A stretch of DNA of 24,000 nt from an uncultured Eubacteriales bacterium (GTDB taxonomy: Bacteria > Bacillota > Clostridia > Christensenellales > Aristaeellaceae): the NCBI GenBank assembly GCA_902767315.1, contig CACXHB010000112.1, positions 1,496-25,495 of the forward strand. The letters run 5' to 3'. The notes beneath the pieces were generated by a model that was given only the letters and a program-made list of their open reading frames with translations, ran no database searches and had not been told where the DNA came from. Positions within the stretch are counted from its first letter, which is position 1, and the number at the start of each line of letters is the position of its first letter. Position numbers and translations under genes: made by a program. Shown one piece after another: positions 5,894 to 19,620 of the stretch.

Positions 5894-6367
5894 TTATTTT
5901 GCCGCCGCCCGGGCCTTTTTCCGGGCCAGATATCGCTGCTCCGCCGCCTCGTATTCCAACCGCTCCTCGTCGTTTTGCAAAACCAGCCGGGGCGGGCGGA
6001 TGGAACGCTCTTCCTCGTCCAGGGCCACCATCACCAGATACGCCCGGTTGATGCGCTCCCGTTCCCCGTTCTGCCGGTCCACATAGGTTTCCACCTTCAC
6101 CTCAAAGGAGGTGTTGCCCACATACGTCACCTTGCCGATGATCTCCAGAATGTCCCCCAGCTTGGCGGCGGTGAGAAAGTCCAGTTTGTCGATGGCGGCG
6201 GTGGTTACCTCCGTGCCGCAATAACGCCGGCCCGTAATGCCGGCCACCATGTCGATCCACTCCAGCAGCCTGCCGCCGTAGAGCTTGCCCCGGGTGTTGA
6301 GATCCTGATACATCAGCATCCGGGTCTGCCGGGTCAGGGAATCCTGCACCGTGCTGGTCTTTTCCAT
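5894..6367 (-). CDS. Acyl-CoA thioesterase (hotdog fold, YciA/BFIT-like)
   Basis: MLMYQDLNTRGKLYGGRLLEWIDMVAGITGRRYCG...VTTAAIDKLDFLTAAKLGDILEIIGKVTYVGNTSFEVKVE is the typical hotdog acyl-CoA thioester hydrolase pattern. GGAGG RBS; 6-nt gap to recQ. Confidence 0.75.
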   Translation of the reverse strand: MEKTSTVQDSLTRQTRMLMYQDLNTRGKLYGGRLLEWIDMVAGITGRRYCGTEVTTAAIDKLDFLTAAKLGDILEIIGKVTYVGNTSFEVKVETYVDRQNGERERINRAYLVMVALDEEERSIRPPRLVLQNDEERLEYEAAEQRYLARKKARAAAK

Positions 6368-8140: not shown

Positions 8141-8170
8141 GAAAACGCCCGAAGCACTTTCGGACGTTTT
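8141..8170 (-). terminator. Putative intrinsic terminator ending the eight-gene T-box operon
   Basis: On the minus strand: ACGUCCGAA-AGUGC-UUCGGGCGU (9-bp stem with one mismatch) followed by UUUCGG. It lies about 45 nt after the stop at 8213. The U-run is short. Confidence 0.45.
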
Positions 8171-8212: not shown

Positions 8213-10711
8213 TTATGCCGTTTCGATGCCCGCGGCCTTCTGCAGCTTCAGCCGCGCGATGGCCTCTTCCCGCATCCTGTATTTCAGTATCTTGCCCGCC
8301 GCGTTCATGGGGAACCCCGTCACAAAGTCGATGTACCGGGGCACCTTGTGCCGGGCCATGTGCTCCCGCACATATTGCTTCATTTCGTCCGCGGTCATGC
8401 TCTCCCCTTCCTTCAGCACCACGCAGGCCATGATCTCCTCGCCGTACTGCTCGTCCGGCACGCCGATCACCTGCACGTCGCTGACCTTGGGGTGGGTGTA
8501 AATGAATTCCTCAATCTCCTTGGGATAAATGTTCTCGCCGCCCCGGATAATCATGTCCTTCAGCCGGCCGGTAATGCGGAAATTGCCGTCCTCGGTCTTG
8601 CAGGCCAGATCGCCCGTGTGCAGCCAGCCGTCCTTGTCGATGGCCCGCACGGTTTCGTCGGGCATCTTGTAATATCCCTTCATCAGGTTGTATCCCCGGG
8701 CCACGAATTCGCCGATTTCCCCGGTGGGCAGCTCCCTGCCGGTGTCCGGGTCGATAATCCGGCATTCGATTTCCGGCATGGCCCGGCCCACGGTGCCCAC
8801 CCGCACCTCCAGCGGGTCGTCCGTGGAGGACATGGTGCATCCCGGGGAAGCCTCCGTCTGGCCGTATACAATCACGATTTCCGACATGTGCATCTTGTTC
8901 ACCACGTCCCGCATTTTGGAAATGGGGCAGGGAGAACCGGCCATGATGCCCGTGCGCATGCAGGAAAAATCCGTCTTTTCAAAGTCCGGATGCTCCAATA
9001 GCGCCACAAACATGGTGGGCACGCCGTGGAAGCAGGTGATGTGCTCCTGATGAATGCAGGCCAGGGCGGGCTTGGCGGAAAAATAGGGCAGGGGCAGTAT
9101 GGTAGCCCCGTGGGTCATGGCCGCGGTCATGGCCAGCACCATACCAAAGCAGTGGAACATGGGCACCTGAATCATCATCCGGTCCGCGGTGGAAAGATCC
9201 ATCCGGTCGCCGATGCATTTGCCGTTGTTGACCACGTTGTAATGGGTCAGCATCACGCCCTTGGGAAATCCCGTGGTGCCGGAAGTGTACTGCATGTTGC
9301 ATACGTCGTGGGGCGAAACCTGCGCCGCCATGCGCAATACTTCCTGATGGGGCACCGTCCTGCCCCGCTCCAGGGCCTCTTCCCAGGTCACGGCCCCCGC
9401 CTGGCGGAAGCCCACGGTGATGATGTTCCGCAAAAAGGGCAGCCGGTGGCTGTGCAGGAACTGCCCGGGTCGGGTCTCCGCCAATTCCGGACAAAGCTCG
9501 TTCATAATGGCCTGATAATCGCTGTCCTTGTTGGATTTCTCCATAATCAGCGTGTGGGTGTCCGATTGCTTCAGCAGATATTCCGCCTCGTGAATCTTGT
9601 AAGCGGTGTTCATGGTCACCAGCACCGCGCCGATTTTGGTGGTGGCCCAGAAGGCGATGAACCACTGGGGCAGGTTGGTGGCCCAGATGGTCACGTGGCT
9701 GCCCGCCTTCACCCCCAGGGCGATCAGCGCCCGGGCGAAGTCGTCCACGTCGTCCCGGAACTGGGCGTAGGTACGGGTGTAGTTGAGGGTGGTGTATTTA
9801 ATGGCCTGCTGGTCGGGGAATTCCTCCACCATCCGGTCCAGCACCTTGGAAAACGTGCAGTCGATCAGGGCGTCCTTGGTCCATACGTACCGGCCCGTGT
9901 GCCGCCGGTTGAAGTGCAGCGGCTTTTTCAGGGTGCGGGGGCTCTCGAACCGGTTCATGTAATTCACAAAATGGGGGAAGATGATCTCCCTGTCCTGCAA
10001 ATCCTCCATCCACTGGGGTTTCCACACCAGGGAAATGAACCCGTCGTAATTAATGGAAGCCAGCGCGTCCATCATGGCGGGAATGGGCAGCGTGCCCTCG
10101 CCGATAAGGTTGTATACTCCCTCGTCGTCGGAATCCCGCAATTGTACGTGGCGCACATACGCCCCCAGGTTTTTGATGGTCACCGCCGGGGTCTCCCCGT
10201 GGTCCCGCACCGTATGGTGCAAATCCCACGTGGCCGCCAGCTCGTCGCAGGCAAAGTAGTTCATCAGATCCCGCAGCCGCTCGGTGTCCGCGTAAATTCC
10301 CGCGGTTTTGATCAGCACCGTCACCCGGTTCTCCGCCGCCCGGGGCAGAATCCGCCGCAGGCTCTCCCGCACCGCGTCCTCGTTTTCCCCGGATGCGTAT
10401 ACCCCGATGTAGGGCACCCGCAAATCCGCCGCCAGCCGGGTCAATTGCTCCATGGCCCGCACCGCGTCCTCTACCTCGCCGGACAGGTCAATCGAACTGT
10501 CCAGACAGGGAATCTCCAGCTTTTTCTCCGCCAGCAGCCGCACGGTGGAGGAAATGCAATATTGATGAAAGGGCCCGCTTTTGTCGAAAAGGGCCTTCTG
10601 CATGTGGGCGTTGTAGATTTCCACGCCGGAAAAGCGCATTTCTCCGGCCATGCGAATCCATTCTTCCCAGGGCGCGCCCTCCCAGCCCCGGGTGGAAAAG
10701 GAGAGCTTCAT
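8213..10711 (-). CDS. Fusion protein: N-terminal xylose-isomerase-like TIM barrel (sugar phosphate isomerase/epimerase, AP-endonuclease-2 fold, ~270 aa) plus C-terminal AMP-dependent acyl-CoA synthetase (FadD/ACSF2-like, ~560 aa)
   Basis: The N-terminus MKLSFSTRGWEGAPWEEWIRMAGEMRFSGVEIYN...VTVLIKT...WDLHHT...HVQLRDSD...GEGTLPIPAMMDALASINYDGFISLVWKP fits the TIM-barrel family pattern. The C-terminus carries MQYTSGTTGFPKGVMLTHYNV, YGQTEASP, GWLHTGDLACKTEDGNFRITGRLKDMIIRGGENIYPKEIE and AGKILK (adenylate-forming A3/A5/A8/A10 motifs). There is one uninterrupted ORF. The start overlaps the upstream stop (ATGA). Confidence 0.85.
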   Translation of the reverse strand: MKLSFSTRGWEGAPWEEWIRMAGEMRFSGVEIYNAHMQKALFDKSGPFHQYCISSTVRLLAEKKLEIPCLDSSIDLSGEVEDAVRAMEQLTRLAADLRVPYIGVYASGENEDAVRESLRRILPRAAENRVTVLIKTAGIYADTERLRDLMNYFACDELAATWDLHHTVRDHGETPAVTIKNLGAYVRHVQLRDSDDEGVYNLIGEGTLPIPAMMDALASINYDGFISLVWKPQWMEDLQDREIIFPHFVNYMNRFESPRTLKKPLHFNRRHTGRYVWTKDALIDCTFSKVLDRMVEEFPDQQAIKYTTLNYTRTYAQFRDDVDDFARALIALGVKAGSHVTIWATNLPQWFIAFWATTKIGAVLVTMNTAYKIHEAEYLLKQSDTHTLIMEKSNKDSDYQAIMNELCPELAETRPGQFLHSHRLPFLRNIITVGFRQAGAVTWEEALERGRTVPHQEVLRMAAQVSPHDVCNMQYTSGTTGFPKGVMLTHYNVVNNGKCIGDRMDLSTADRMMIQVPMFHCFGMVLAMTAAMTHGATILPLPYFSAKPALACIHQEHITCFHGVPTMFVALLEHPDFEKTDFSCMRTGIMAGSPCPISKMRDVVNKMHMSEIVIVYGQTEASPGCTMSSTDDPLEVRVGTVGRAMPEIECRIIDPDTGRELPTGEIGEFVARGYNLMKGYYKMPDETVRAIDKDGWLHTGDLACKTEDGNFRITGRLKDMIIRGGENIYPKEIEEFIYTHPKVSDVQVIGVPDEQYGEEIMACVVLKEGESMTADEMKQYVREHMARHKVPRYIDFVTGFPMNAAGKILKYRMREEAIARLKLQKAAGIETA

Positions 10712-12132
10712 GCTTCGGCCTCCTCATATACGATTTTGTTCAGCGCGCTGACGTAGGCCCGGATGCTGGCCCCCACCACGTCCGTGGAAATGCCCCGCCC
10801 GGAATACAGCTTGCCCCCGGAGCGCAGCCGCACGATGGTTTCGCCCATGGCCTCCCGGCCCTGGGTCACGGCCTGAATCTGGAAATCGTCCAGTTCGTAG
10901 TGGTGCCCCACAATCTGCTCCACCGCCAGGAACGCCGCGTCGATGGGCCCGTCTCCCAGACACACTCCCTCCAGCTTCGTCTCGCCCTTGTAAAGCACCA
11001 GATGAGCGCTGGCGGAAACGGTGTTGCCGCAGGTCACCAGATACGTGTCCACCCGGTAAGTGGGGGGCACCTGCATGGCCGCGGAGGCCACGATGGTGTC
11101 CAACTCCTTGGCGCTGAGGCTCTCCTTCCGGGCGGCGATGCGCTGGAAGGCCTCGTATACCCGGGCCACGTCCTCTTCGGACAGGTCGTAGCCGATCTTC
11201 TTCACCGCGTCGGCCACGGCGGCGCGGTCGTCGTGGGCGGAAAGCACCACGTCCGCGTGGGCCGCGGCGGACTGCACCCCGCTGTCAAAGGGGGATTTCG
11301 CGTCCCGGCTGGTGCGGCACATCCATTCGATCTGGTCCGTCACCCGCTTCAGTTCCGTGTTGTAAAGGTCGCTGCCCACGCCCATGGCCACGCCCCGGCT
11401 CTGCATCACCGCGGAAAAGTGGTTGATGCTGGTCACGTTGCCTTTGCAGGAAATGACCTTGATCTCCCGGGCCCCGCAGCGCACCGCCGCCGTGGCGCAG
11501 GCCGTGGCCATGTTCATCTCGTCCGAACACATGACCCCCAGCCGCACGCTGTCCATTTCCGGCACCGCGGCCTTGATCTCTTCCAGAAATTGCGTAAATT
11601 CGTCCGGGAACATCAGTCCTGCAGTGTCGCACAGGGTAATCACCGTGGCGCCGGCGGAAATGGCCGTGCGGATGGCCCGGCAGAGGAACTCCCTTTCGCT
11701 GCGGCAGGCATCGTCCGCAATGAATTCCACCTCGCCGCATTTTTCCCGGCATTGGGCGATCAGCCCCGCGATGGTCTCCAGGGTCTTTTCCGGCTTCTTG
11801 TGCCAGAAATATTCCATCTGGGTGGGGCTCATGGGGGCCTCCACCTGCAGCCGGGGATTTACCGCGTTTTTCAGCGCTTCGTAAGTGTCCTCCACGCTGC
11901 CCTCCTCCAGGGTCACGGGCGCGGCGATGGTGGCGTGCTTCACCGCCATGGCGATGGATTTAATCAAAAGGCTGTCGATTTTCCGGCTGCGGATGGGGCT
12001 GACCTCGATGACGCTGACGTTCAGCCGGTCCAGCAGCTTCGCCAGCTCGATTTTCTCCTTAAAGCTCAGGGAAAGCTCCGGGGCCTGGTCGGCAACCTTC
12101 ATGGTAATATCGCTTACGCCAATGTTCTGCAT
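10708..12132 (-). CDS. 2-isopropylmalate/citramalate synthase homologue with a degenerate catalytic site and a conserved C-terminal LeuA allosteric/dimerisation domain (probable pseudoenzyme or sensor)
   Basis: The HMGL-like barrel is alignable to LeuA, but DTTLRDGEQ is replaced by DITMKVADQ, HxH(N/D)D by MCSDE, and GIGERAGN by CKGNVTSI. DTAGL (for DTVGY) is kept. The C-terminus GDGPIDAAFLAVEQIVG...FQIQAVTQGREAMGETIVRLRSGGKLYSGRGISTDVVGASIRAYVSALNKI is a well-conserved LeuA regulatory domain. AGGAGG RBS. Confidence 0.75.
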   Translation of the reverse strand: MQNIGVSDITMKVADQAPELSLSFKEKIELAKLLDRLNVSVIEVSPIRSRKIDSLLIKSIAMAVKHATIAAPVTLEEGSVEDTYEALKNAVNPRLQVEAPMSPTQMEYFWHKKPEKTLETIAGLIAQCREKCGEVEFIADDACRSEREFLCRAIRTAISAGATVITLCDTAGLMFPDEFTQFLEEIKAAVPEMDSVRLGVMCSDEMNMATACATAAVRCGAREIKVISCKGNVTSINHFSAVMQSRGVAMGVGSDLYNTELKRVTDQIEWMCRTSRDAKSPFDSGVQSAAAHADVVLSAHDDRAAVADAVKKIGYDLSEEDVARVYEAFQRIAARKESLSAKELDTIVASAAMQVPPTYRVDTYLVTCGNTVSASAHLVLYKGETKLEGVCLGDGPIDAAFLAVEQIVGHHYELDDFQIQAVTQGREAMGETIVRLRSGGKLYSGRGISTDVVGASIRAYVSALNKIVYEEAEA

Positions 12133-12175
12133 GGACTTGTGTCCTCCTGTATGGTTTGATGTTTTCGCGGCCGCG

Positions 12176-13243
12176 TCAAATGCGCAGGGTCCACCCGAAG
12201 GGATCCTCGATCTTGCCCCACTGAATGCCGGTAAGGGTGTCGTACAGCATGTGGGTCACTTCACCGATCTCGCCGCCGTTTACGATGTACGTCCTGTCTT
12301 TGTAAGCCAGCTTGCCGATGGGCGAAATCACCGCGGCGGTGCCGCAGCCCCAGGCCTCTTCCAGGGTGCCGTTTTCCATGGCGGCGGCCAGTTCGTCCAC
12401 GCTCAGCAGGCGCTCTACTACATTGTAGCCCTTGCCGCGCAAAACGTCAATGCAGCTTTTCCGGGTAACGCCGGGCAAAATGGAGCCCGTCAGCGCCGGG
12501 GTCACCACTTCGCCGGAAATTTTGAACATCACGTTCATGGCGCCCACTTCTTCAATGTACTTGCGCTCCACGCCGTCCAGCCACAAAACCTGGCTGTATC
12601 CCTGCCGTTCGGCCCGCTCGCCGGCCCGGTTGGAGGCCGCGTAATTGCCGCCGCACTTGGCGTATCCCGTGCCGCCCCGCACCGCACGCACGTCCTGATC
12701 CTCGATCATGATGCCCACGGGGTTGATGCCTTCCTTATAATAGCTGCCCACCGGGGAAAGAATCACGCAGAAGGCGGCGTGCTCCACCGCGTGCACCCCC
12801 AGCGTCTCGTCCGTTCCGAAGGTGAAGGGCCGAATGTACAGGCTGGTGCCTTCCAGATGGGGCACCCAGTCCTCCTCCATCTTCACCAGCGTGGTCACCA
12901 CCTGCAAAAAGTCCTCCTCCGGCAGCTGGGGCAGACACAGCCGCTCCGCGGAATTCATCATTCGCCGGGCGTTTTCCCAGGGGCGGAACAGCTGCACGCC
13001 GCCGTCCTTTCTGCGGTAAGCCTTCAGTCCTTCGAAAATCTCCGCGCCGTAGTGAAGACAGGTGGAGGCCGGATGCATGGAGAAGTTGCCGAAGGGGACG
13101 ATCCGGGCGTCGTGCCAGCCCTTTTCCCTGTCCCAGTCCACCATCGCCATGTAATCGGTAAAAATCTTTCCAAAGCCCAGCTTGGTCTCGTCGGCGGGCT
13201 TTTCCTTCAGCTGCGCGCATTTTTCCACACGGATGTCCAACAT
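12176..13243 (-). CDS. ilvE: Branched-chain amino acid aminotransferase (fold-type IV PLP enzyme, ~355-aa type)
   Basis: KLGFGKIFTDYM, HYGAEIFEGLKAYR, GTGYAKCGGNYAAS, LTGSILPGVTR and GCGTAAVISPI motifs. I chose the start at 13243 (MLDIRVEK) because GGGAGGAG lies 7 nt upstream. The track ORF begins 24 nt earlier, at 13267. Confidence 0.9.
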   Translation of the reverse strand: MLDIRVEKCAQLKEKPADETKLGFGKIFTDYMAMVDWDREKGWHDARIVPFGNFSMHPASTCLHYGAEIFEGLKAYRRKDGGVQLFRPWENARRMMNSAERLCLPQLPEEDFLQVVTTLVKMEEDWVPHLEGTSLYIRPFTFGTDETLGVHAVEHAAFCVILSPVGSYYKEGINPVGIMIEDQDVRAVRGGTGYAKCGGNYAASNRAGERAERQGYSQVLWLDGVERKYIEEVGAMNVMFKISGEVVTPALTGSILPGVTRKSCIDVLRGKGYNVVERLLSVDELAAAMENGTLEEAWGCGTAAVISPIGKLAYKDRTYIVNGGEIGEVTHMLYDTLTGIQWGKIEDPFGWTLRI

Positions 13244-13280
13244 TTCTTTTCTCCTCCCTGCGTTCAAATCCCTGGGTTCT

Positions 13281-13814
13281 TTATTCGAAGTTCCGGCCCA
13301 TTTCCAGGGCCTTCCGGTTGAAATCGTACATCTCCGGGTGCTTCACGGAAACCACCTTTTTCAGCGCCGCCTCCACGTTTTCCGGCTCGTACTGCCCCAG
13401 TCGGGCCAGCATCGCCCCGGAAAGAATCATGTTGGCCAGGGTGGTCACCCCGTTTTCCCCGGCCATGCGGGTGGCGGGCACATATACCGCGTGCACGTCC
13501 TGCCGGCGCACCTTCCGCTCAATCAGCGTGGAATCCACAAAAATCCATCCGCCGGGGTTCACCGCGTCCTCGTATTTGTCCAGCGACGGCAGATTCATCA
13601 CCATCAAAACGTCCGGATGATCCACAATGGGGGAAGAAACCGGCTCGTCCCCGATGACCACCGAACAGTTGGCGGTGCCGCCCCGCATTTCCGGGCCGTA
13701 GGAGGGCAGCCAGGTCACCTGCTTTCCCTCCATCATGCCCTTGTTCACCAGAAACTTGCCCGCGAAGAGGATGCCCTGTCCGCCGAATCCGGCGATGAGA
13801 AAACGAGTGGTCAT
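13281..13814 (-). CDS. 2-oxoacid:ferredoxin oxidoreductase, gamma subunit
   Basis: [22 protein letters not shown]...[20 protein letters not shown] is the typical gamma-subunit signature. The start ATG at 13812-13814 overlaps the beta stop (ATGA). The longer track ORF start at 13889 lies inside the beta gene. Confidence 0.85.
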
Positions 13815-14566
13815 TTTGCCTCCTCCTTTGCGCTTCTGTCCTTGTAAACTCCCAGGGGATAATAGGGAATCATCTTGTCCTGCACCCATTCCAGCGCCTT
13901 TTCCGGCGTCATGCCCCAGTTGGTGGGACAGGCGGACAACACCTCCACCAGAGAAAATCCCTTCCCCGCCAGCTGGTTTTCAAATGCCTTTTTGATGGCC
14001 TTTTTCGCGGCCTTCACGTTTTTGACGTTGTTCACCGCCACCCGTTCCAGATATTCCGGCCCGTCCAGGGTGGAAAGCATTTCGCAGATCTTCACCGGAT
14101 ACCCGCAGGCCTTCACGTCCCTTCCGTAGGGCGAGGTCTGGGTCACCTGCCCGGGCAGGGAGGTGGGGGCCATCTGCCCGCCGGTCATGCCGTAAATGGC
14201 GTTGTTGATGAAAATAATGGTGATGTTCTCGTTCCGGGCCGCGGCGTGCACCGTCTCCGCCGTGCCGATGGAGGCCAGGTCTCCGTCTCCCTGATAGGTA
14301 AACACCACGTTGTGCTCCGGGTCGGCCCGCTTCAGTCCCGTGGCCACCGCGGGGGCCCGTCCGTGGGCCGCCTCCACCATGTCGCAGGCGAAATAATCAT
14401 ACGCCATCACCGCGCAGCCCACCGGCGCCACGCCGATGGTGCGTCCCTCGATGCCCAGTTCGTCGATCACTTCCGCCACCAGCCGGTGCACAATGCCGTG
14501 GGTGCACCCGGGGCAGTAATGCAGCGGTACGTCCAAAAGAGCGTGGGGTCGTTCAAATACCATCAT
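13811..14566 (-). CDS. 2-oxoacid:ferredoxin oxidoreductase, beta (TPP-binding) subunit
   Basis: [19 protein letters not shown], and the TPP motif [14 protein letters not shown]...[14 protein letters not shown]. The start overlaps the alpha stop. Confidence 0.9.
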
Positions 14567-15627
14567 TTTTCGGCGCCTCCCTCCATGTTTTCGATTCCTC
14601 TGAGCACCTCTTCCGGGGAAGGAATGATGCCGCCCGCCCGATGAATCAGCTTCACCGGCCGTTTGCAGGAAATGGCCAGCCGCACGTCGTCAATCATCTG
14701 GCCCATGTTCAGTTCCACCGTGGCAAAGGATACGCACTTCTCCGCTGCGGCCGCCAGGGCCTTTTCCGGGAAGGGCCACAGGGTAATGGGCCGAATCATG
14801 CCCGCCCGAATGCCCTTTTTCCGGGCCTCGTCAATGGCCGCCTTGGTCACCCGCGCCGCAATGCCGAAGGCCACCAGGCAGTATTCCGCGTCCTCCATGC
14901 GGTATTCCTCCCACATGGCCTCCTTTTCCTGAATCCGCCCGTACCGCTGGAACCGCTCAAAGTTCTGCCGCTCCAGCTCCGCCGGGGCCAGGGAAAGGGA
15001 ATTGACGATGTTGTGCTTGCGGCCCATGCCCGTGCCGGTAACGGCCCAGGACTTGTCGAATTCCTTTTTCTCGATTTTCGGAATTTCCACCGGCTCCATC
15101 ATCTGGCCCATGGTGCCGTCCGCCAGTATCATGGCCGTCATCCGGTATTCGTCCGCCAGGTCAAAGCCCTTCACCGTCAAATCGGCCATTTCCTGCACGC
15201 TGGCCGGGGCCAGCACGATCATCCGGAAATCCCCGTGTCCGCCGCCCTTGGTGGCCTGGAAGTAGTCCGATTGAGAGGGCTGAATGCCCCCCAGCCCCGG
15301 GCCGCCCCGCTGCACGTTCACCACCAGCGCCGGCAGATCCGCCCCCGCCAGATAGGAAAGCCCCTCGCTCTTCAGGGAAATTCCCGGGCTGGAGGAAGAG
15401 GTCATCACCCGATGCCCGGTGGAAGAGACGCCGTAAACCATGTTGATGGCGGCGATTTCACTTTCCGCCTGCAGAAACACGCCGCCGATTTTGGGCATGC
15501 GTTTGGCCATGTAGGCCGCCACTTCCGTCTGCGGCGTAATGGGATATCCGAAATAATGCCGGCATCCGGCCATGATGGCCGCCTCGGCAATGGCTTCGTT
15601 GCCCTTCATCAGTACCTTGTCCGCCAT
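14563..15627 (-). CDS. vorB: 2-oxoacid:ferredoxin oxidoreductase, alpha subunit (VorB-like; substrate not assignable from sequence alone)
   Basis: [36 protein letters not shown]...[15 protein letters not shown]... is the typical four-subunit OFOR alpha N-terminus. The vorB label rests on resemblance to proteins I recall being annotated that way, plus the BCAT context. Confidence 0.8.
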
Positions 15628-15645
15628 GAAATTCGCCTGCCTTTC

Positions 15646-15852
15646 TTATCGCTCCACCGTAATCACGCAATCGGGGCACATGGTGGCGCAGAAGGCGCAG
15701 CCCACGCAGGCCTCGGGGTTCGTGATCTCGGCGGGATGGTGTCCTTTTTGATTGATGCGGTCCCGTGCGATGCGAATGAGCTTTTTGGGGCACGCGCCTA
15801 CGCACAGTCCGCAGCCCTTACAGCGGTCCACCTGAAACGTGATCTTTGCCAT
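15646..15852 (-). CDS. 2x[4Fe-4S] ferredoxin (OFOR delta subunit), 68 aa
   Basis: Two CxxCxxCxxxCP motifs: CKGCGLCVGACP and CVGCAFCATMCP. It lies immediately upstream of the alpha subunit. Confidence 0.85.
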   Translation of the reverse strand: MAKITFQVDRCKGCGLCVGACPKKLIRIARDRINQKGHHPAEITNPEACVGCAFCATMCPDCVITVER

Positions 15853-15903
15853 GTTCGCTCCTCTTTTCGTCGTCGTTGTAAGATAAAATCGAATGCTTCG
15901 CGT

Positions 15904-16566
15904 TTATCGTATCTTGTCCTGCAGCCGCAGGGGGAAAAGGTTTTCGATCTTCCCTTCCAGATAGGGAATCAGTTCCGCCTTTGCGGTGGTCATCTTCAGC
16001 GGCAGCCCCGCCCTGCGGCAGATTTCCCGGGCGTATCCGTCGGAAGAAAGCACGTCCCGGGGGGCGGTGTCGTCTCCAATGTTGGAATTGTTCACCACGC
16101 CGGTAAAGGGCATCCCCGCCGCCGCCTGAATTTCCGCCATCACCTCCAGGGCGCTGTCCGCGTCCCGGGTCAGGGGGCGAAAGCAGTTCACCACCATCAG
16201 CATCTCCCAGTCTCCTTCCGCCATCAGCCCTTCCCGCCATCGGCCCAGGGCCAGGGCCCCCCGGTCGTCGCCGCCCACGTCCACCACGGCGGAAAGGCCG
16301 ATATCGTCGGTAATGGCGTATACCTCGTCGGGCAGGGCGGGCAAATCCACGTTGGAACCCGCAAAGGGCGAGGCGATCAGCCGAATGCCGTCCCGCTCCA
16401 GCTCCTCCCGGGAATCCTCCGTGCGGAAATAGGGGTTCACAATGTCAATGTCCGCAATGGCCACCCGGGGCCGGGTCTTTTTTAAATGATGGGCCACGTT
16501 CACGGCGATGTTGGTTTTGCCGCTGCCGTAATGGCCGCTGAAAATCACAATGCGCTTGAAATCCAT
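15904..16566 (-). CDS. P-loop NTPase of the MinD/ParA/CooC (SIMIBI) type, 220 aa; first gene of the T-box operon
   Basis: MDFKRIVIFSGHYGSGKTNIAVN carries Walker A GxxGSGKT right at the N-terminus, followed by VAIADIDIVNPYF and a Walker-B-like AVVDVGGDD. The start at 16566 is preceded by GAAGGAGG. The track ORF start at 16707 would run through the T-box terminator hairpin. Confidence 0.7.
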   Translation of the reverse strand: MDFKRIVIFSGHYGSGKTNIAVNVAHHLKKTRPRVAIADIDIVNPYFRTEDSREELERDGIRLIASPFAGSNVDLPALPDEVYAITDDIGLSAVVDVGGDDRGALALGRWREGLMAEGDWEMLMVVNCFRPLTRDADSALEVMAEIQAAAGMPFTGVVNNSNIGDDTAPRDVLSSDGYAREICRRAGLPLKMTTAKAELIPYLEGKIENLFPLRLQDKIR

Positions 16567-16587
16567 GCCGCCCCTCCTTCTGCCGGT

Positions 16588-16885
16588 ATGAAAAAACACA
16601 CTCGTCTCAAAGAAATGAGATTCTTTGAGACGAGTGTGATCAAAACACCCGCGGTACCACTCAAATTGCGGTCTGTGAAAAAACCGCCCCTCGTCGGGCT
16701 CTGACAAGCCCTATGCCTTGACGCAGCAGTCACGGGAAGGTTCTACTGGCCCCCTCGGGCGTTCTTCCTTCCGGCTCGGGAAATTCAGATGTCCGCCCTG
16801 CGCCGCGTTTCGTGGCTCGCACCCACCGCCACTTCTCTGAAAACGGGCCTTCGCCGGGGACATTTTCCCTCATTGCCTTTGTTGT
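16588..16885 (-). promoter_or_regulatory. T-box riboswitch leader 1 (tRNA-sensing transcription attenuator)
   Basis: Read on the minus strand: K-turn AAUGA...GAG; AG bulge CAGAGAA; distal loop GGUGGGUGCGA; AGUAG; T-box AAUUUGAGUGGUACCGCGGG (plus coordinates 16648-16662). UUUGAG can pair with CUCAAA of the terminator 5' arm, forming the antiterminator. The terminator is CACACUCGUCUCAAAGA-loop-UCUUUGAGACGAGUGUG followed by UUUUUU (16591-16638). Confidence 0.9.
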
Positions 16886-16890
16886 GGCCT

Positions 16891-16919
16891 ATTCTATCTC
16901 ATTTCCTTTGCGCTGTCAA
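16891..16919 (-). promoter_or_regulatory. Sigma-70 promoter of T-box leader 1 (-35 TTGACA, 17 nt, -10 TAGAAT)
   Basis: The minus strand reads TTGACAgcgcaaaggaaatgagaTAGAAT. The -35 is a perfect consensus match, the spacer is 17 nt, and the -10 matches TATAAT at 5 of 6 positions. Confidence 0.8.
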
Positions 16920-16992: not shown

Positions 16993-19254
16993 TTACAGCT
17001 TGTTGCGCTGAATCTTGCCGCTGACGGTCTTGGGCAATTCGTCCTTGAACACCACGATGCGGGGATATTTGTAAGGCGCGGTGTGCTCCTTGACGTAGGT
17101 CTGAATCTCCTTTTTCAATTCCTCCGTGCCCTGGGTGCCCTTTGTCAGCACGATGCTGGCCTTCACCACCTGGCCGCGCACCTCGTCCGGCGCGGCGGAT
17201 ACGCCGCATTCCAGCACGTAGGGCAGTTCCATAATGACGCTCTCGATTTCGAAGGGCCCAATCCGGTATCCGGAGGATTTGATCACGTCGTCCACCCGGC
17301 CCACGTACCAGTAGAAGCCGTCCTCGTCCATCCAGGCCACGTCGCCGGTGTGATACCATCCGTCGTGCCATACCTCCCGGGTCTTCTCCTCGTCCCGGTA
17401 ATATCCCTTAAACAGCCCGCAGGGTACCTTTTCGTCCGTGCGGATGCAGATTTCGCCGGAAACGCCCGCGCCCACGATTTCTCCGTCGGGCCCCAGCAGA
17501 TGAATATCGTACAGGGGCACCGGCTTGCCCATGGCCCCCACCTTGTGGGAATCTCCCATGAGGTTGGCGATGGAAAGGGTGGTCTCCGTCTGGCCGAAGC
17601 CCTCCATGATCCGCAGCCCCGTCAGCTTCTCGAATTGCCGGAATACCTCCGGGTTCATGGCCTCGCCGGCGGTGGTGGCCCGCTGGACGGAGGAGAAGTC
17701 GTACTGGCTCAGGTCCTGCTTGATCATCATCCGATACATGGTCGGCGGCGCGCAGAAGGTGGTGATGTGATACTTGGCGAACAGGGGCAGAATGTCCGCC
17801 GCGTCGAACCGGTCGAAGTCGTAGGTGAATACTCCGCCCTCGCACAGCCATTGCCCGTACAGCTTGCCCCACAGGGCCTTGCCCCATCCGGTGTCGGAAA
17901 TGGTGAAGTGCAGCCCGTCCCGGTCCACCCCGTGCCACCAGCGGGCGGTGATGTAATGCCCCAGGGGATATTTGTACGAATGGGCCGCGATCTTGGGATA
18001 CCCGGTGGTGCCGCTGGTGAAGAACATCAGCATTGTGTCGTCGCCGCAGGGGGCGTCCTCCGGCCGGTCGTATTTCCGGGTGAACAGTACGCTCTCCCCG
18101 TCGTAATCGTGCCAGCCCTCCCTGCTGCCGCCCACGGCGATTTTCACCTTCAGTTCGGGACAGCTCGCCGCCGCCAGATCCACCTGATGGGCGGTGTCCC
18201 CGTCGCAGGTGCACAATATGGCGCTGACCCCCGCGGACTGGAACCGGTATTCGAAGTCGTGGGCCTGCAGCTGATTGGTGGCGGGAATGGCGATGGCCCC
18301 CAGCTTGTGCAGCCCCAGAATCGCCGGCCAGAATTCCCAGTGCCGCTTCAGCACCAGCATCACCCGGTCGCCCTTTTTCACGCCCAGGGATTTAAAGTAA
18401 TTGGCCGCCTGGGCGGAAAGCCGCTTCATGTCCTTGAAGGTGAATTTCCGCTCCTGCTTGTGCTTGTCCAGATGCAGCATGGCCAGCTTGTCCGGGTATT
18501 TGTCCGCCAGCGCGTCCACCACGTCGAAGGCGAAGTTGAACTGATCTTCCCCGGTAAACTCGATGCGCTTCAGGGTTCCGTCCTCGCCTACCCCCGCGTG
18601 CACAAACTTTTCGCACACCAGATCCTCGGCCTTGCTGGCCATCACCAGGCTGTCCCGAATCTCCGCCTCGGCCACTTCCTCCCCCGGCAGCACCACCGCC
18701 AGGAACACGCAGTCCTGCCCGTCCACGGCGATCATCCCGTGGGGCGTGGAGGAATCATAGAAAATGCTGTCTCCTTCGTTCAGCAGCTCCACATGGTCGC
18801 CCACCTGCACCTTCAGCGTGCCGGAGAAAATCAGGTCGAATTCCTGGCCGGAATGGGTGGTCATGTGAATAGGCCGGTGCTGCAATTCCGGCAGATAGTC
18901 GTATTTTACCCAATAGGGCTCGGCCATCTTCCCCCGGAACATGGGGGCCAGGTGCTGAATCTGAATGCCCCGCTCCCGGGCGGTGGTCACGCCCCGGCCC
19001 TTGCGGGTCACGGTGTAACTGGAAAGGTGCGCGCTGTATCCCTCCAACAGGTCGGTAATCTCAATGCCGAAGGCCAGGGCGCATTTGTGAATGAACGTAA
19101 AGGGCAGATCCACCGCGCCGGTTTCATATGCCGCGTACGTCTCCGGGCTCACCTGGGTCTTTTCCGCCATCTCGGCCTCGGTCAGCCCCATAATTTCGCG
19201 CATCTCCCGAATGCGCAGCGCGATTTCCATCAGCGGATTTTGAGAAGTTTGCAT
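16993..19254 (-). CDS. Fusion protein: XRE-family HTH + cupin domain (~190 aa) plus medium-chain-type AMP-dependent acyl-CoA synthetase (ACSM/MacS-like)
   Basis: N-terminus: MEIALRIREMREIMGLTEAEMAEKTQVSPETYAAYETG (HTH_3-like), then HSGQEFDLIFSGTLKVQVGDHVELLNEGDSIFYDSSTPHGM (cupin). C-terminus: FNFAFDVVDALADKYPDKLAMLH, MLMFFTSGTTGYPK, GFGQTET, GWYHTGDVAWMDEDGFYWYVGRVDDVIKSSGYRIGPFEIES and SGKIQR. The start at 19254 (MQTSQNPL) follows GGGAGGG. The track start at 19362 lies inside the T-box. Confidence 0.85.
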   Translation of the reverse strand: MQTSQNPLMEIALRIREMREIMGLTEAEMAEKTQVSPETYAAYETGAVDLPFTFIHKCALAFGIEITDLLEGYSAHLSSYTVTRKGRGVTTARERGIQIQHLAPMFRGKMAEPYWVKYDYLPELQHRPIHMTTHSGQEFDLIFSGTLKVQVGDHVELLNEGDSIFYDSSTPHGMIAVDGQDCVFLAVVLPGEEVAEAEIRDSLVMASKAEDLVCEKFVHAGVGEDGTLKRIEFTGEDQFNFAFDVVDALADKYPDKLAMLHLDKHKQERKFTFKDMKRLSAQAANYFKSLGVKKGDRVMLVLKRHWEFWPAILGLHKLGAIAIPATNQLQAHDFEYRFQSAGVSAILCTCDGDTAHQVDLAAASCPELKVKIAVGGSREGWHDYDGESVLFTRKYDRPEDAPCGDDTMLMFFTSGTTGYPKIAAHSYKYPLGHYITARWWHGVDRDGLHFTISDTGWGKALWGKLYGQWLCEGGVFTYDFDRFDAADILPLFAKYHITTFCAPPTMYRMMIKQDLSQYDFSSVQRATTAGEAMNPEVFRQFEKLTGLRIMEGFGQTETTLSIANLMGDSHKVGAMGKPVPLYDIHLLGPDGEIVGAGVSGEICIRTDEKVPCGLFKGYYRDEEKTREVWHDGWYHTGDVAWMDEDGFYWYVGRVDDVIKSSGYRIGPFEIESVIMELPYVLECGVSAAPDEVRGQVVKASIVLTKGTQGTEELKKEIQTYVKEHTAPYKYPRIVVFKDELPKTVSGKIQRNKL

Positions 19255-19297: not shown

Positions 19298-19586
19298 TGA
19301 AAAAAACCCGTCCCAAAGCGTTTTGCTTTGAGACGGGTGAAAACATTCTCCCGCGGTACCACTCAAATTGCGGTCTATAAAAAACCGCCCCTCGTCGGGC
19401 TCCAACAAGCCCTATGCCTTGACGCAGCAATCACGTAAGTCCCTACTCGGTTCCCCTTTGAGGCCTTCAACTCGGAAGTGATGGGTCTGATGGATTTCGA
19501 TCCGCCGGTTCACACCAACCACCGGCTCTCTGCAGCACGATCTCCGACCGCCTTCGTCATCGTCTTTGATGTCGTATTCGGTTGTA
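19298..19586 (-). promoter_or_regulatory. T-box riboswitch leader 2
   Basis: Read on the minus strand: K-turn GAUGAC-GAAG...CUUC-CGAG; AG bulge CAGAGAG; distal loop GGUUGGUGUGAA; AGUAGGG; T-box AAUUUGAGUGGUACCGCGGG (plus 19350-19364). The terminator is ACCCGUCUCAAAGC-aaaac-GCUUUGGGACGGGU followed by UUUUUUU (19300-19338). The best specifier guess is AUC followed by A, just 5' of the CUUC lower-stem strand. Confidence 0.9.
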
Positions 19587-19591
19587 AATAT

Positions 19592-19620
19592 ATCTTAGCA
19601 CCCGCCGCCGGTTCTGTCAA
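19592..19620 (-). promoter_or_regulatory. Sigma-70 promoter of T-box leader 2 (-35 TTGACA, 17 nt, -10 TAAGAT)
   Basis: The minus strand reads TTGACAgaaccggcggcgggtgcTAAGAT, with a perfect -35 and a 17-nt spacer. Confidence 0.75.

Follow-up and report, generated by a model that had tools for sequence, protein, structure and literature searches.

Does a T-box-controlled gene cluster of an uncultured Eubacteriales bacterium encode a route that converts branched short-chain fatty acids (SCFAs) into branched-chain amino acids (BCAAs), and how would such a route be switched on? Rumen and gut anaerobes have been known since the 1960s to need or assimilate these "isoacids," and the bacterial genes involved have so far been poorly defined. 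The cluster in question lies on a 24,000-nucleotide (nt) stretch of contig CACXHB010000112.1 (hereafter, the window), with all of its elements on the minus strand, and consists of an eight-gene operon (g1 to g8) behind one T-box leader, here called the focal leader, and an adjoining upstream gene, g0, behind a second T-box leader (Table 1). We conclude, with a probability of about 75%, that the locus is a salvage system for turning branched SCFAs into BCAAs, built from these two adjacent T-box-controlled units. A preliminary description of the same DNA had placed a complete acid-to-amino-acid route under starvation control within the eight genes, as a single operon. The route and its control find comparative support in related loci, but the eight genes alone are complete for the leucine branch only: the isoleucine-gated synthetase lies in the neighboring unit, the valine-gated paralog of g0 is missing from the window genome, and the unit is larger than eight genes, as a second promoter and T-box gate the adjoining g0, which belongs to the same system.

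With the steps assigned from family membership, the pathway would begin with AMP-forming acyl-coenzyme A (acyl-CoA) synthetases that activate the acids, g0 acting on 2-methylbutyrate and g8 on isovalerate. A VorB-type, four-subunit 2-oxoacid:ferredoxin oxidoreductase (OFOR) would then use ferredoxin to convert the acyl-CoA into the 2-oxoacid by reductive carboxylation, and a branched-chain aminotransferase (BCAT) would turn the 2-oxoacid into isoleucine, leucine, or valine. T-boxes induce genes that supply their cognate amino acid. On each leader of the locus, an uncharged tRNA would block the terminator, with tRNA-Ile (AUC) opening the g0 unit and, most likely, tRNA-Leu (CUG) opening the eight-gene operon. 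Since each synthetase paralog has a cognate leader, the ATP-costly activation step would be matched to the amino acid that is in short supply.

The identities of the OFOR alpha, beta, and gamma subunits, the ferredoxin, and the BCAT, which the preliminary description had read from the letters, were borne out by domain and model matches. Specifically, all four OFOR domain sets are present (alpha, POR_N and PFOR_II; beta, thiamine pyrophosphate [TPP]-binding; gamma, POR; delta, 2x[4Fe-4S]), the beta subunit carries Cys18, Cys21, Cys51, and Cys222, and g2 contains two complete CxxCxxCxxxCP motifs. VorB and BCAT score above their curated cutoffs, and every enzyme of the pathway is present. OFORs are reversible.

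The assignment of each branch to its amino acid depends on the leaders. At the Rfam gathering threshold, nothing was detected in the window (the gathering score of RF00230 is 93 bits), and both leaders came out in E-value mode, below the curated cutoff. Both contain the conserved T-box core AAUUUGAGUGGUACCGCG and the kink-turn (K-turn), AGAGA, and GGUG motifs of Stem I, and in both the 3′ arm of the antiterminator is also the 5′ arm of the terminator (18 bp in the focal leader and 14 bp in the second), which is followed by a U-run. The two leaders are ~94% identical over their 3′ two-thirds, from Stem IIA/B to the T-box core (16640–16740 versus 19340–19430), and differ in Stem I, a pattern that suggests local duplication or gene conversion with divergence in the specificity domain alone. 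The second leader, which at 90.7 bits is also under the gathering score, has the specifier AUC (Ile) at 19482–19480 in the canonical arrangement AUC-A-CUUC, with an A and then the basal helix CUUC after the codon. Given this specifier in a canonical upstream leader, g0 is isoleucine-gated.

Comparison of specifiers across ~190 loci (the best 80 genome loci plus metagenome loci), with the K-turn and the 4-bp basal helix of Stem I as anchors for calling, extended this result to the family. A search for the T-box core in the 80 loci recovered 64 leaders before g7, 71 before copies of g0, and 2 before g1; representative leaders are full-length T-boxes by Rfam (54 to 112 bits), one homologous g7-type leader reaching 112 bits. 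Leaders before g7 carried CUN (Leu) in all 56 callable cases (41 CUG, 13 CUC, and 2 CUA), and those before g0 carried either AUC (Ile; n = 42) or GUN (Val; n = 29, comprising 19 GUC and 10 GUA). Such synonymous variation in the Leu and Val classes is as would be expected for a true specifier. In a neighbor-joining tree of g0, the 39 Ile-gated and the 29 Val-gated proteins fell into separate, pure clades, and the window copy lies in the Ile clade. Scanning metagenomes with a Val-class backbone pattern yielded 94 more loci and ~80 Val-class leaders, all of which read GUC or GUA and precede a Val-type g0. Every T-box core of the set contains UGGU, which fits the A73 discriminator common to tRNA-Ile, tRNA-Val, and tRNA-Leu. 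The genes thus recur behind T-boxes in related genomes, a point that the preliminary description had raised for checking, with the specifier class matching the cargo across the ~190 loci, and each synthetase paralog appears to stand family-wide under its own cognate leader (Ile, Val, or Leu). In four fused operons from goat and deer gut metagenome-assembled genomes (MAGs; L016, L018, L034, and L044), g7-g8 follow BCAT, and neither g7-g8 nor g1 has a leader; the Val leader of these loci reads CUGUAG, which contains both CUG and GUA, and their leucine-associated genes appear to be under the upstream Ile and Val leaders alone.

The division of labor among the leaders is mirrored in the synthetases themselves, as the Ile and Val leaders precede paralogs resembling MacsMa and MbcS, and the Leu leaders precede a synthetase of another type, g8. 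Purified MbcS is selective for 2-methylbutyrate and isobutyrate and turns over isovalerate only poorly (PMC10026030), and this would explain why the Leu leaders govern a different synthetase. In g0, the synthetase domain (AMP-binding, 216 bits; AMP-binding_C, 74 bits) matches MacsMa (PDB 3ETC) with 632 bits (E = 1e-188), and the MacsMa pocket residue Trp259 aligns with W462. Its top NCBIfam model is MbcS; because the score, 417 bits, falls short of the equivalog cutoff (850), g0 does not count as an equivalog or ortholog of MbcS. Within the synthetase domain, Ile-type and Val-type g0 are split by a single residue of the motif TGW[G/A]K (Gly458 versus Ala458), four positions ahead of W462; that the larger acid would go with the smaller side chain is suggestive. 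Of the eight residues that tell the Ile-gated clade from the Val-gated one, the other seven fall in the helix-turn-helix (HTH)-cupin region (residues 18–114, ~18913–19203), a hint that this domain itself may be specific for a ligand or amino acid; inspection by eye near the two promoters revealed no obvious palindromes of operator type that could serve the HTH domain. From these features and its leader, g0 is a putative 2-methylbutyrate-activating enzyme.

The g8 synthetase domain (AMP-binding, 310 bits; AMP-binding_C, 74 bits) is nearest to PRK12583, with 708 bits against a cutoff of 832, and, among solved structures, fatty-acyl-, feruloyl-, and malonyl-CoA synthetases come closest (~250 bits). 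It is the Leu leaders, and they only, that mark g8 as the probable isovalerate-activating enzyme.

These findings bear on two other uses of the same chemistry. AMP-forming synthetases favor acyl-CoA formation. All three synthetases are of this kind, as would suit assimilation rather than a catabolism that conserves ATP. Being reversible, both BCAT and OFOR could, in a Stickland-type oxidative module, degrade BCAAs to acyl-CoAs and branched fatty acids, for which PorA of Clostridium sporogenes offers a catabolic precedent. However, induction of a T-box by uncharged cognate tRNA is the wrong signal for degradation, the three CoA enzymes, all AMP-forming, include no phosphotransacylase/kinase, CoA-transferase, or ADP-forming synthetase of the kind that conserves ATP, and the one-to-one match between specifier and synthetase paralog is sensible only if the acid is the substrate; we consider a catabolic module very unlikely. 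About as hard to credit is that the locus serves to supply branched acyl-CoA primers for membrane fatty acids, as MbcS does in Staphylococcus aureus, rather than amino acids. Although MbcS, a primer supplier for branched-chain fatty acids, is the top NCBIfam match of g0, primer supply needs neither tRNA-charging control nor an obligatory linkage to OFOR and BCAT, and none of the loci examined contained fabH or other genes of fatty-acid synthesis. The acyl-CoA pool may serve both purposes, amino acids and lipid primers.

In this genome, OFOR and BCAT lie behind the focal leader. The preliminary description had proposed an RF00230 match over the leader region as a check and named a non-branched-chain specifier as a refutation of its reading; the full-length match was obtained (Table 1), and the triplet called, CUG, most likely denotes Leu, so that no non-branched-chain specifier emerged. 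It had also called the leader a canonical T-box attenuator: the attenuator stands, by virtue of the full-length match and the terminator, but the word "canonical" does not, because the score is below 93 and the 3′ specifier bulge is non-canonical. The exposed CUG is located at 16788–16786. In the minimum-energy fold, a 5-nt 3′ bulge, CUGAA, lies between two helices without an S-turn, and the predicted basal helix is 6 bp long and takes in the last spacer nucleotide, which leaves two extra nt after CUG. The T-box canon against which this geometry was judged, and from which it departs, is a codon followed by a purine beside the basal helix.

Among the 12 g1-type leaders, which include the window's own sequence as re-found in the metagenome scan (L130), CUG never changes; after it come a spacer of varying sequence (AAU, UAU, GAU, GAAU, or GGAU) and then the 4-bp basal helix, while the other frames of the bulge vary (GAA/GUA/GGA or UGA/UGU/UGG). 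The helix above the bulge covaries (AUGU/ACAU, GUGC/GCAU, AUGC/GCAU, AUGAC/GUCAU, and GUGCC/GGUGC), and g1-type leaders were found only in fused operons whose g7-g8 have lost their own Leu leader (8/8). The invariant CUG, the covarying helix, and the restriction to operons in which g7-g8 lost the Leu leader together led us to read the focal specifier as Leu (CUG), which we regard as probable. Two other assignments were tried and rejected: AUC (Ile) does not occur in L012 or L122, and its first two letters, A and U, form pairs within the covarying helix, and the frames for GAA (Glu) or UGA vary across homologs.

A focal leader that does not read Leu, but still responds to tRNA-Val as a derivative of the Val class, reads another triplet (GAA or UGA), or has lost its specificity, would account for the fit of its backbone to the Val class (GAGCCGGAAGGAAGAA), for the frequent reading CUGUAG in Val-class leaders and CUGUAU, which contains GUA, in three g1-type leaders, and for a non-canonical geometry coupled with the lowest Rfam scores of the set (54 to 70 bits). 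It would sit poorly with the retention of CUG in all 12 g1-type leaders while the other frames vary, with a covarying helix just above the bulge that ties up the AU of "AUC," and with the confinement of these leaders to the eight of eight fused operons in which g7-g8 have no Leu leader of their own; moreover, UGGU is at odds with the G73 discriminator of tRNA-Glu. We hold a non-Leu focal leader to be unlikely. On the preferred Leu reading, the focal-type specifier seems to have moved by two nucleotides, from Val to Leu. Many Val-class leaders (L095–L188) read CUGUAG or CUGUCG, and one (L048:6683) has GUC followed by UAU, an extended geometry like that of the g1-type; the L048 leader may represent an evolutionary intermediate in this two-nucleotide shift.

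The arrangement of the focal operon largely follows the preliminary description, which had reported a near-consensus promoter, eight co-directional genes with three ATGA overlaps, and gaps of 0 to 50 nt. The promoter was found and all eight genes and three overlaps are present; the 4-nt overlaps lie at g3/g4, g4/g5, and g7/g8, and the spacing is indeed tight, although the remaining gaps measure 13 to 51 nt. The operon is closed by a hairpin and T-run ~45 nt past g8, ahead of an unrelated recQ. Between the g0 stop and promoter P1 (16920–16992), there is no convincing terminator, and transcripts from the Ile leader therefore probably run on into the Leu leader, such that expression of OFOR and BCAT would need both signals in this genome.

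Table 1. Positions of the elements of the eight-gene operon and of the upstream g0 unit in the window
Feature	Position	Strand	Basis
Promoter P1, TTGACA-17-TAGAAT; drives the eight-gene operon	16919-16891	-	11/12 consensus matches (promoter scan)
Focal T-box leader, g1-type	16623-16882	-	RF00230, model 1-219 (full), 63.7 bits, E = 3.4e-13
Intrinsic terminator of focal leader	16588-16638	-	18-bp stem, then U6; 5′ arm common to antiterminator
g1, divergent SIMIBI-class P-loop NTPase	15904-16566	-	Weak CbiA/ParA Pfam match; intact Walker A
g2, 2x[4Fe-4S] ferredoxin (OFOR delta-type subunit)	15646-15852	-	Fer4 domains; top NCBIfam matches are OFOR delta
g3, OFOR alpha, VorB type	14563-15627	-	NF005507, 541 bits (cutoff 399)
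g4, OFOR beta (TPP-binding)	13811-14566	-	TPP_enzyme_C; PorB/KorB family matches
g5, OFOR gamma	13281-13814	-	PF01558, 131 bits
g6, BCAT (class IV, IlvE type II)	12176-13243	-	NF009897, 480 bits (cutoff 307); TIGR01123, 393 bits (cutoff 250)
g7, LeuA-fold pseudoenzyme (HMGL-like barrel + LeuA regulatory domain)	10708-12132	-	Below every LeuA cutoff
g8, xylose-isomerase-like TIM barrel (~9871-10711) fused to AMP-forming acyl-CoA synthetase (~8213-9870)	8213-10711	-	AP_endonuc_2, AMP-binding, AMP-binding_C
Terminator-like hairpin + T-run, operon end	8142-8169	-	Read directly from sequence; missed by simple terminator scan
Promoter P2, TTGACA-17-TAAGAT, TG extension	19592-19620	-	10/12 matches
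Second T-box leader	19326-19569 (with terminator, 19306-19569)	-	RF00230, full model 1-219, 90.7 bits, E = 7e-19
Terminator of second leader	19338-19306	-	14-bp stem (terminator scan)
g0, HTH_3 + Cupin_2 + AMP-forming acyl-CoA synthetase	16993-19254	-	Pfam domains

Three proteins or domains of the locus, namely g7, the TIM barrel of g8, and g1, go beyond the enzymes of the route. The preliminary description had listed g7 as a LeuA-like protein, and the LeuA fold and the dimer domain are there (PF00682, 116 bits; PF08502 [LeuA_dimer], 99 bits), with a structural model that superimposes on 3EWB at a Foldseek template modeling (TM) score of 0.91 and a root-mean-square deviation (rmsd) of 1.8 Å; what is not there is any of the LeuA metal ligands. 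The motif DTTLRDGEQ has become SDITMKVADQ and HCHDD has become MCSDE, so that the metal-ligand positions (the Asp of RDGEQ and the two His of HxH) are occupied by Val, Met, and Ser in the window protein and by Q/L/R/E/A, S/R/L/A/G, and S/A/N/V/C, never D or H, in 91 homologs. Against models of LeuA, CimA, and homocitrate synthase, g7 stayed under every cutoff (best score, 308 bits; cutoff, 532). Its C-terminal regulatory domain is almost invariant, and its barrel has strongly conserved residues of its own. Since the metal ligands are lost family-wide, g7 is, by sequence, a conserved pseudoenzyme and not a LeuA-type enzyme, and it possibly acts as a sensor of leucine or 2-oxoisocaproate or as a scaffold for g8.

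In g8, the TIM domain forms a barrel distantly resembling xylose isomerase; its nearest structures are MJ1311 (E = 6e-10) and AsbF, and it retains conserved His, Asp, and Glu positions, for which reason it may be catalytic. Such residues are typical of metal-dependent xylose-isomerase-like enzymes, and, together with the conserved residues of the g7 barrel and the fact that the minimal isovalerate route requires neither g7 nor the TIM domain, they raise the alternative that g7 and the TIM domain are catalytic and feed another precursor into leucine, in which case the Leu branch would not start from isovalerate. Yet g7 lacks every metal ligand for the Claisen or lyase chemistry of its superfamily, the gene context points to no candidate substrate, and the linked partners of g7-g8, OFOR and BCAT, are enough to process isovaleryl-CoA; we therefore consider another leucine precursor improbable and keep to isovalerate.

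The remaining protein, g1, always lies between the synthetase gene(s) and the ferredoxin gene. Its Walker A motif, GHYGSGKT, is intact, several further motifs are invariant among 43 homologs, and its AlphaFold2 (AF2) model (predicted local distance difference test [pLDDT], 87) has SRP/FtsY/FlhF GTPases and ATPase-type HypB as nearest folds (TM 0.55 to 0.65). Profile similarity to ArsA, MinD, and Mrp is limited to the P-loop; likewise, searches of the PDB with the single sequence and with a profile returned P-loop-level matches only, and the fold search returned only generic SIMIBI neighbors. With neither the signature Lys of MinD/ParA nor the conserved Cys pair of Fe-S carriers and NifH, g1 could not be placed in a named subfamily. 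NifH-like electron transfer was judged unlikely, the conserved Cys pair being absent. Because many SIMIBI NTPases assemble metal centers, one may reasonably guess, but not claim, that g1 helps in OFOR maturation or assembly.

A broader interpretation of these accessory parts is that each of the three synthetases has a protein-level sensor in addition to its T-box. According to it, g7, with or without the TIM domain, would be a leucine/2-oxoisocaproate brake on isovalerate activation, the HTH-cupin of g0 would be an Ile/Val-specific allosteric or DNA-binding module, and g1 would be a dedicated OFOR maturation factor or an energetic-assist factor for its thermodynamically difficult reductive carboxylation. 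We regard this scheme as speculative and rather unlikely to hold as a whole; if true, it would represent a previously unrecognized, multi-layered regulation around a repurposed biosynthetic enzyme fold.

The spread of the family is consistent with a shared function of its genes. Homologs of g7 number in the thousands, are annotated as "hypothetical" or "regulatory domain-containing," and all come from uncultured Clostridia; a pattern scan with one genome per species placed the family in at least 590 species, and the carriers are almost all uncultured (Oscillospiraceae, Faecousia, Lachnospiraceae, and relatives). The best 80 are MAGs from gut and rumen, assigned to Oscillospiraceae, Faecousia, Lachnospiraceae, Christensenellales, Peptococcaceae, and Tissierellia. 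In these 80 loci, g7-g8 form an invariant pair wherever the contig continues (module 1), and they are flanked, in divergent, co-directional, or downstream orientation, by g0 (usually two tandem paralogs), g1, ferredoxin, OFOR alpha/beta/gamma, and BCAT (module 2). That the linkage of the two modules survives such rearrangement indicates a shared function. For Leu-gated g7-g8 pairs on their own, the gene that follows encodes BCAT in five lineages; in four it encodes a NifJ-type OFOR, a single-chain enzyme (TIGR02176, 1721 bits). The occurrence of g7-g8 next to a NifJ-type OFOR or a BCAT in several lineages suggests repeated recruitment in different forms. The NifJ-type gene stands directly after g7-g8 at L037:13948-17430 and also in L038, L045, and L052, which are Lachnospiraceae-like, Eubacterium, and Tissierellia MAGs, and this paralog may be a branched-chain-specific, single-chain OFOR. 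The VorB sequence of the window species was present on 397 contigs, where public annotation gives only "VorB," "AMP-binding protein," and "hypothetical."

Several observations weigh against the conclusion that the locus salvages branched SCFAs under matched BCAA control. First, as to the focal leader, its score is below the Rfam gathering score (63.7 versus 93), its CUG is separated from the base helix of Stem I by 3 to 4 nt, counted from the 4-bp helix, where the canon has a single purine, and its backbone clearly derives from the Val class (CUGUAG to CUGAAU or CUGUAU), which makes its specificity uncertain. Second, with OFOR and BCAT behind that leader, isoleucine limitation alone would leave them shut in the window arrangement, and a Leu-type leader is altogether missing from the four fused operons of goat and deer gut MAGs. 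Third, the substrate range and flux direction of the OFOR are predictions drawn from context and family names, the locus encodes neither a source of reduced ferredoxin nor an acid transporter, and the minimal pathway does not account for what g1, g7, and the TIM domain do.

Two further genes of the window lie at a distance from the system. A 4HBT-family thioesterase gene (5894–6367, minus strand) is located two genes downstream of the operon, past recQ; its position is kept in four loci of the same species (L091–L094), and nothing ties it to the system. At 463–1728 on the plus strand, a 421-aa open reading frame (ORF) has a YbaK/ProX-type aminoacyl-tRNA editing domain confined to its last ~130 residues; gene calls for this region on the same contigs give a 163-aa protein, and the longer frame is probably spurious, a by-product of the high G+C content.

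As a concrete and very widespread gene set for probable isoacid assimilation, the locus offers three T-box specifiers that serve as built-in functional labels, each connecting a synthetase to an amino acid. Its genes could be used to predict cross-feeding of branched SCFAs in gut and rumen communities, could explain the effects of isoacid feed supplements, and could help to interpret host-relevant pools of branched SCFAs and BCAAs. The locus also exposes three uncharacterized protein families (the LeuA pseudoenzyme, the orphan SIMIBI NTPase, and the TIM- or HTH-cupin-fused synthetases) and yields a T-box variant with an apparent two-nucleotide specifier shift from Val to Leu.

Reductive carboxylation of isoacids is classical in rumen bacteria, and an anabolic, reversible 2-oxoisovalerate:ferredoxin oxidoreductase (VOR) is known from archaea. 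The chemistry proposed here, from acid to acyl-CoA to 2-oxoacid and on to transamination, is the same as that of archaeal VOR, of MacsMa, and of rumen isoacid carboxylation. In comparison with the archaeal VOR and MacsMa, the present locus is bacterial, clustered, and riboswitch-controlled, its synthetases bear an N-terminal HTH-cupin or TIM barrel, and it has the conserved partners g1 and g7 in addition. MacsMa from Methanosarcina acetivorans (PDB 3ETC) prefers 2-methylbutyrate (PMC10455477). The open-access papers and preprints searched contained no account of the operon, of T-boxes that control OFOR or acyl-CoA synthetase genes, or of the Ile/Val/Leu leader trio; the pathway chemistry and the riboswitch class are known, and there appears to be no earlier description of the gene set, of the T-box logic with its three specificities, or of the accessory proteins.

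With the T-box-controlled BCAA genes of Firmicutes (for example, the Leu T-box of Bacillus subtilis ilv-leu and the leuA T-boxes of PMC2494555), the locus shares the riboswitch class and the logic of induction. It differs in that the cargo is fatty-acid salvage and not de novo ilv/leu genes, a tRNA synthetase, or a transporter, in that three leader specificities occur within one locus in the family, and in that the focal specifier bulge is non-canonical; the 2008 survey of T-boxes does not mention OFOR or acyl-CoA synthetase cargo. MbcS of Staphylococcus aureus (PMC10026030) is a homologous AMP-forming synthetase whose selectivity mirrors the split between Ile/Val-gated g0 and Leu-gated g8. 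By contrast, its product is used for membrane fatty-acid synthesis, the protein lacks an HTH-cupin domain, and no T-box control has been described for it. Similarly, g7 has the TIM-barrel fold and LeuA_dimer domain of LeuA (PDB 3EWB, 1SR9, and 3FIG) along with control by leucine availability, but the Asp and two His of the catalytic metal site are replaced in 91 of 91 members, and g7 is always paired with the TIM barrel-synthetase fusion. Finally, PorA of Clostridium sporogenes (bioRxiv 10.1101/401489) is an enzyme of the PFOR superfamily that acts on branched 2-oxoacids in this gut Clostridium and connects the same amino acids and fatty acids; its role is catabolic, with neither a T-box nor dedicated AMP-forming synthetases reported for it, in contrast to the assimilatory direction that we infer for the T-box-gated locus described here.

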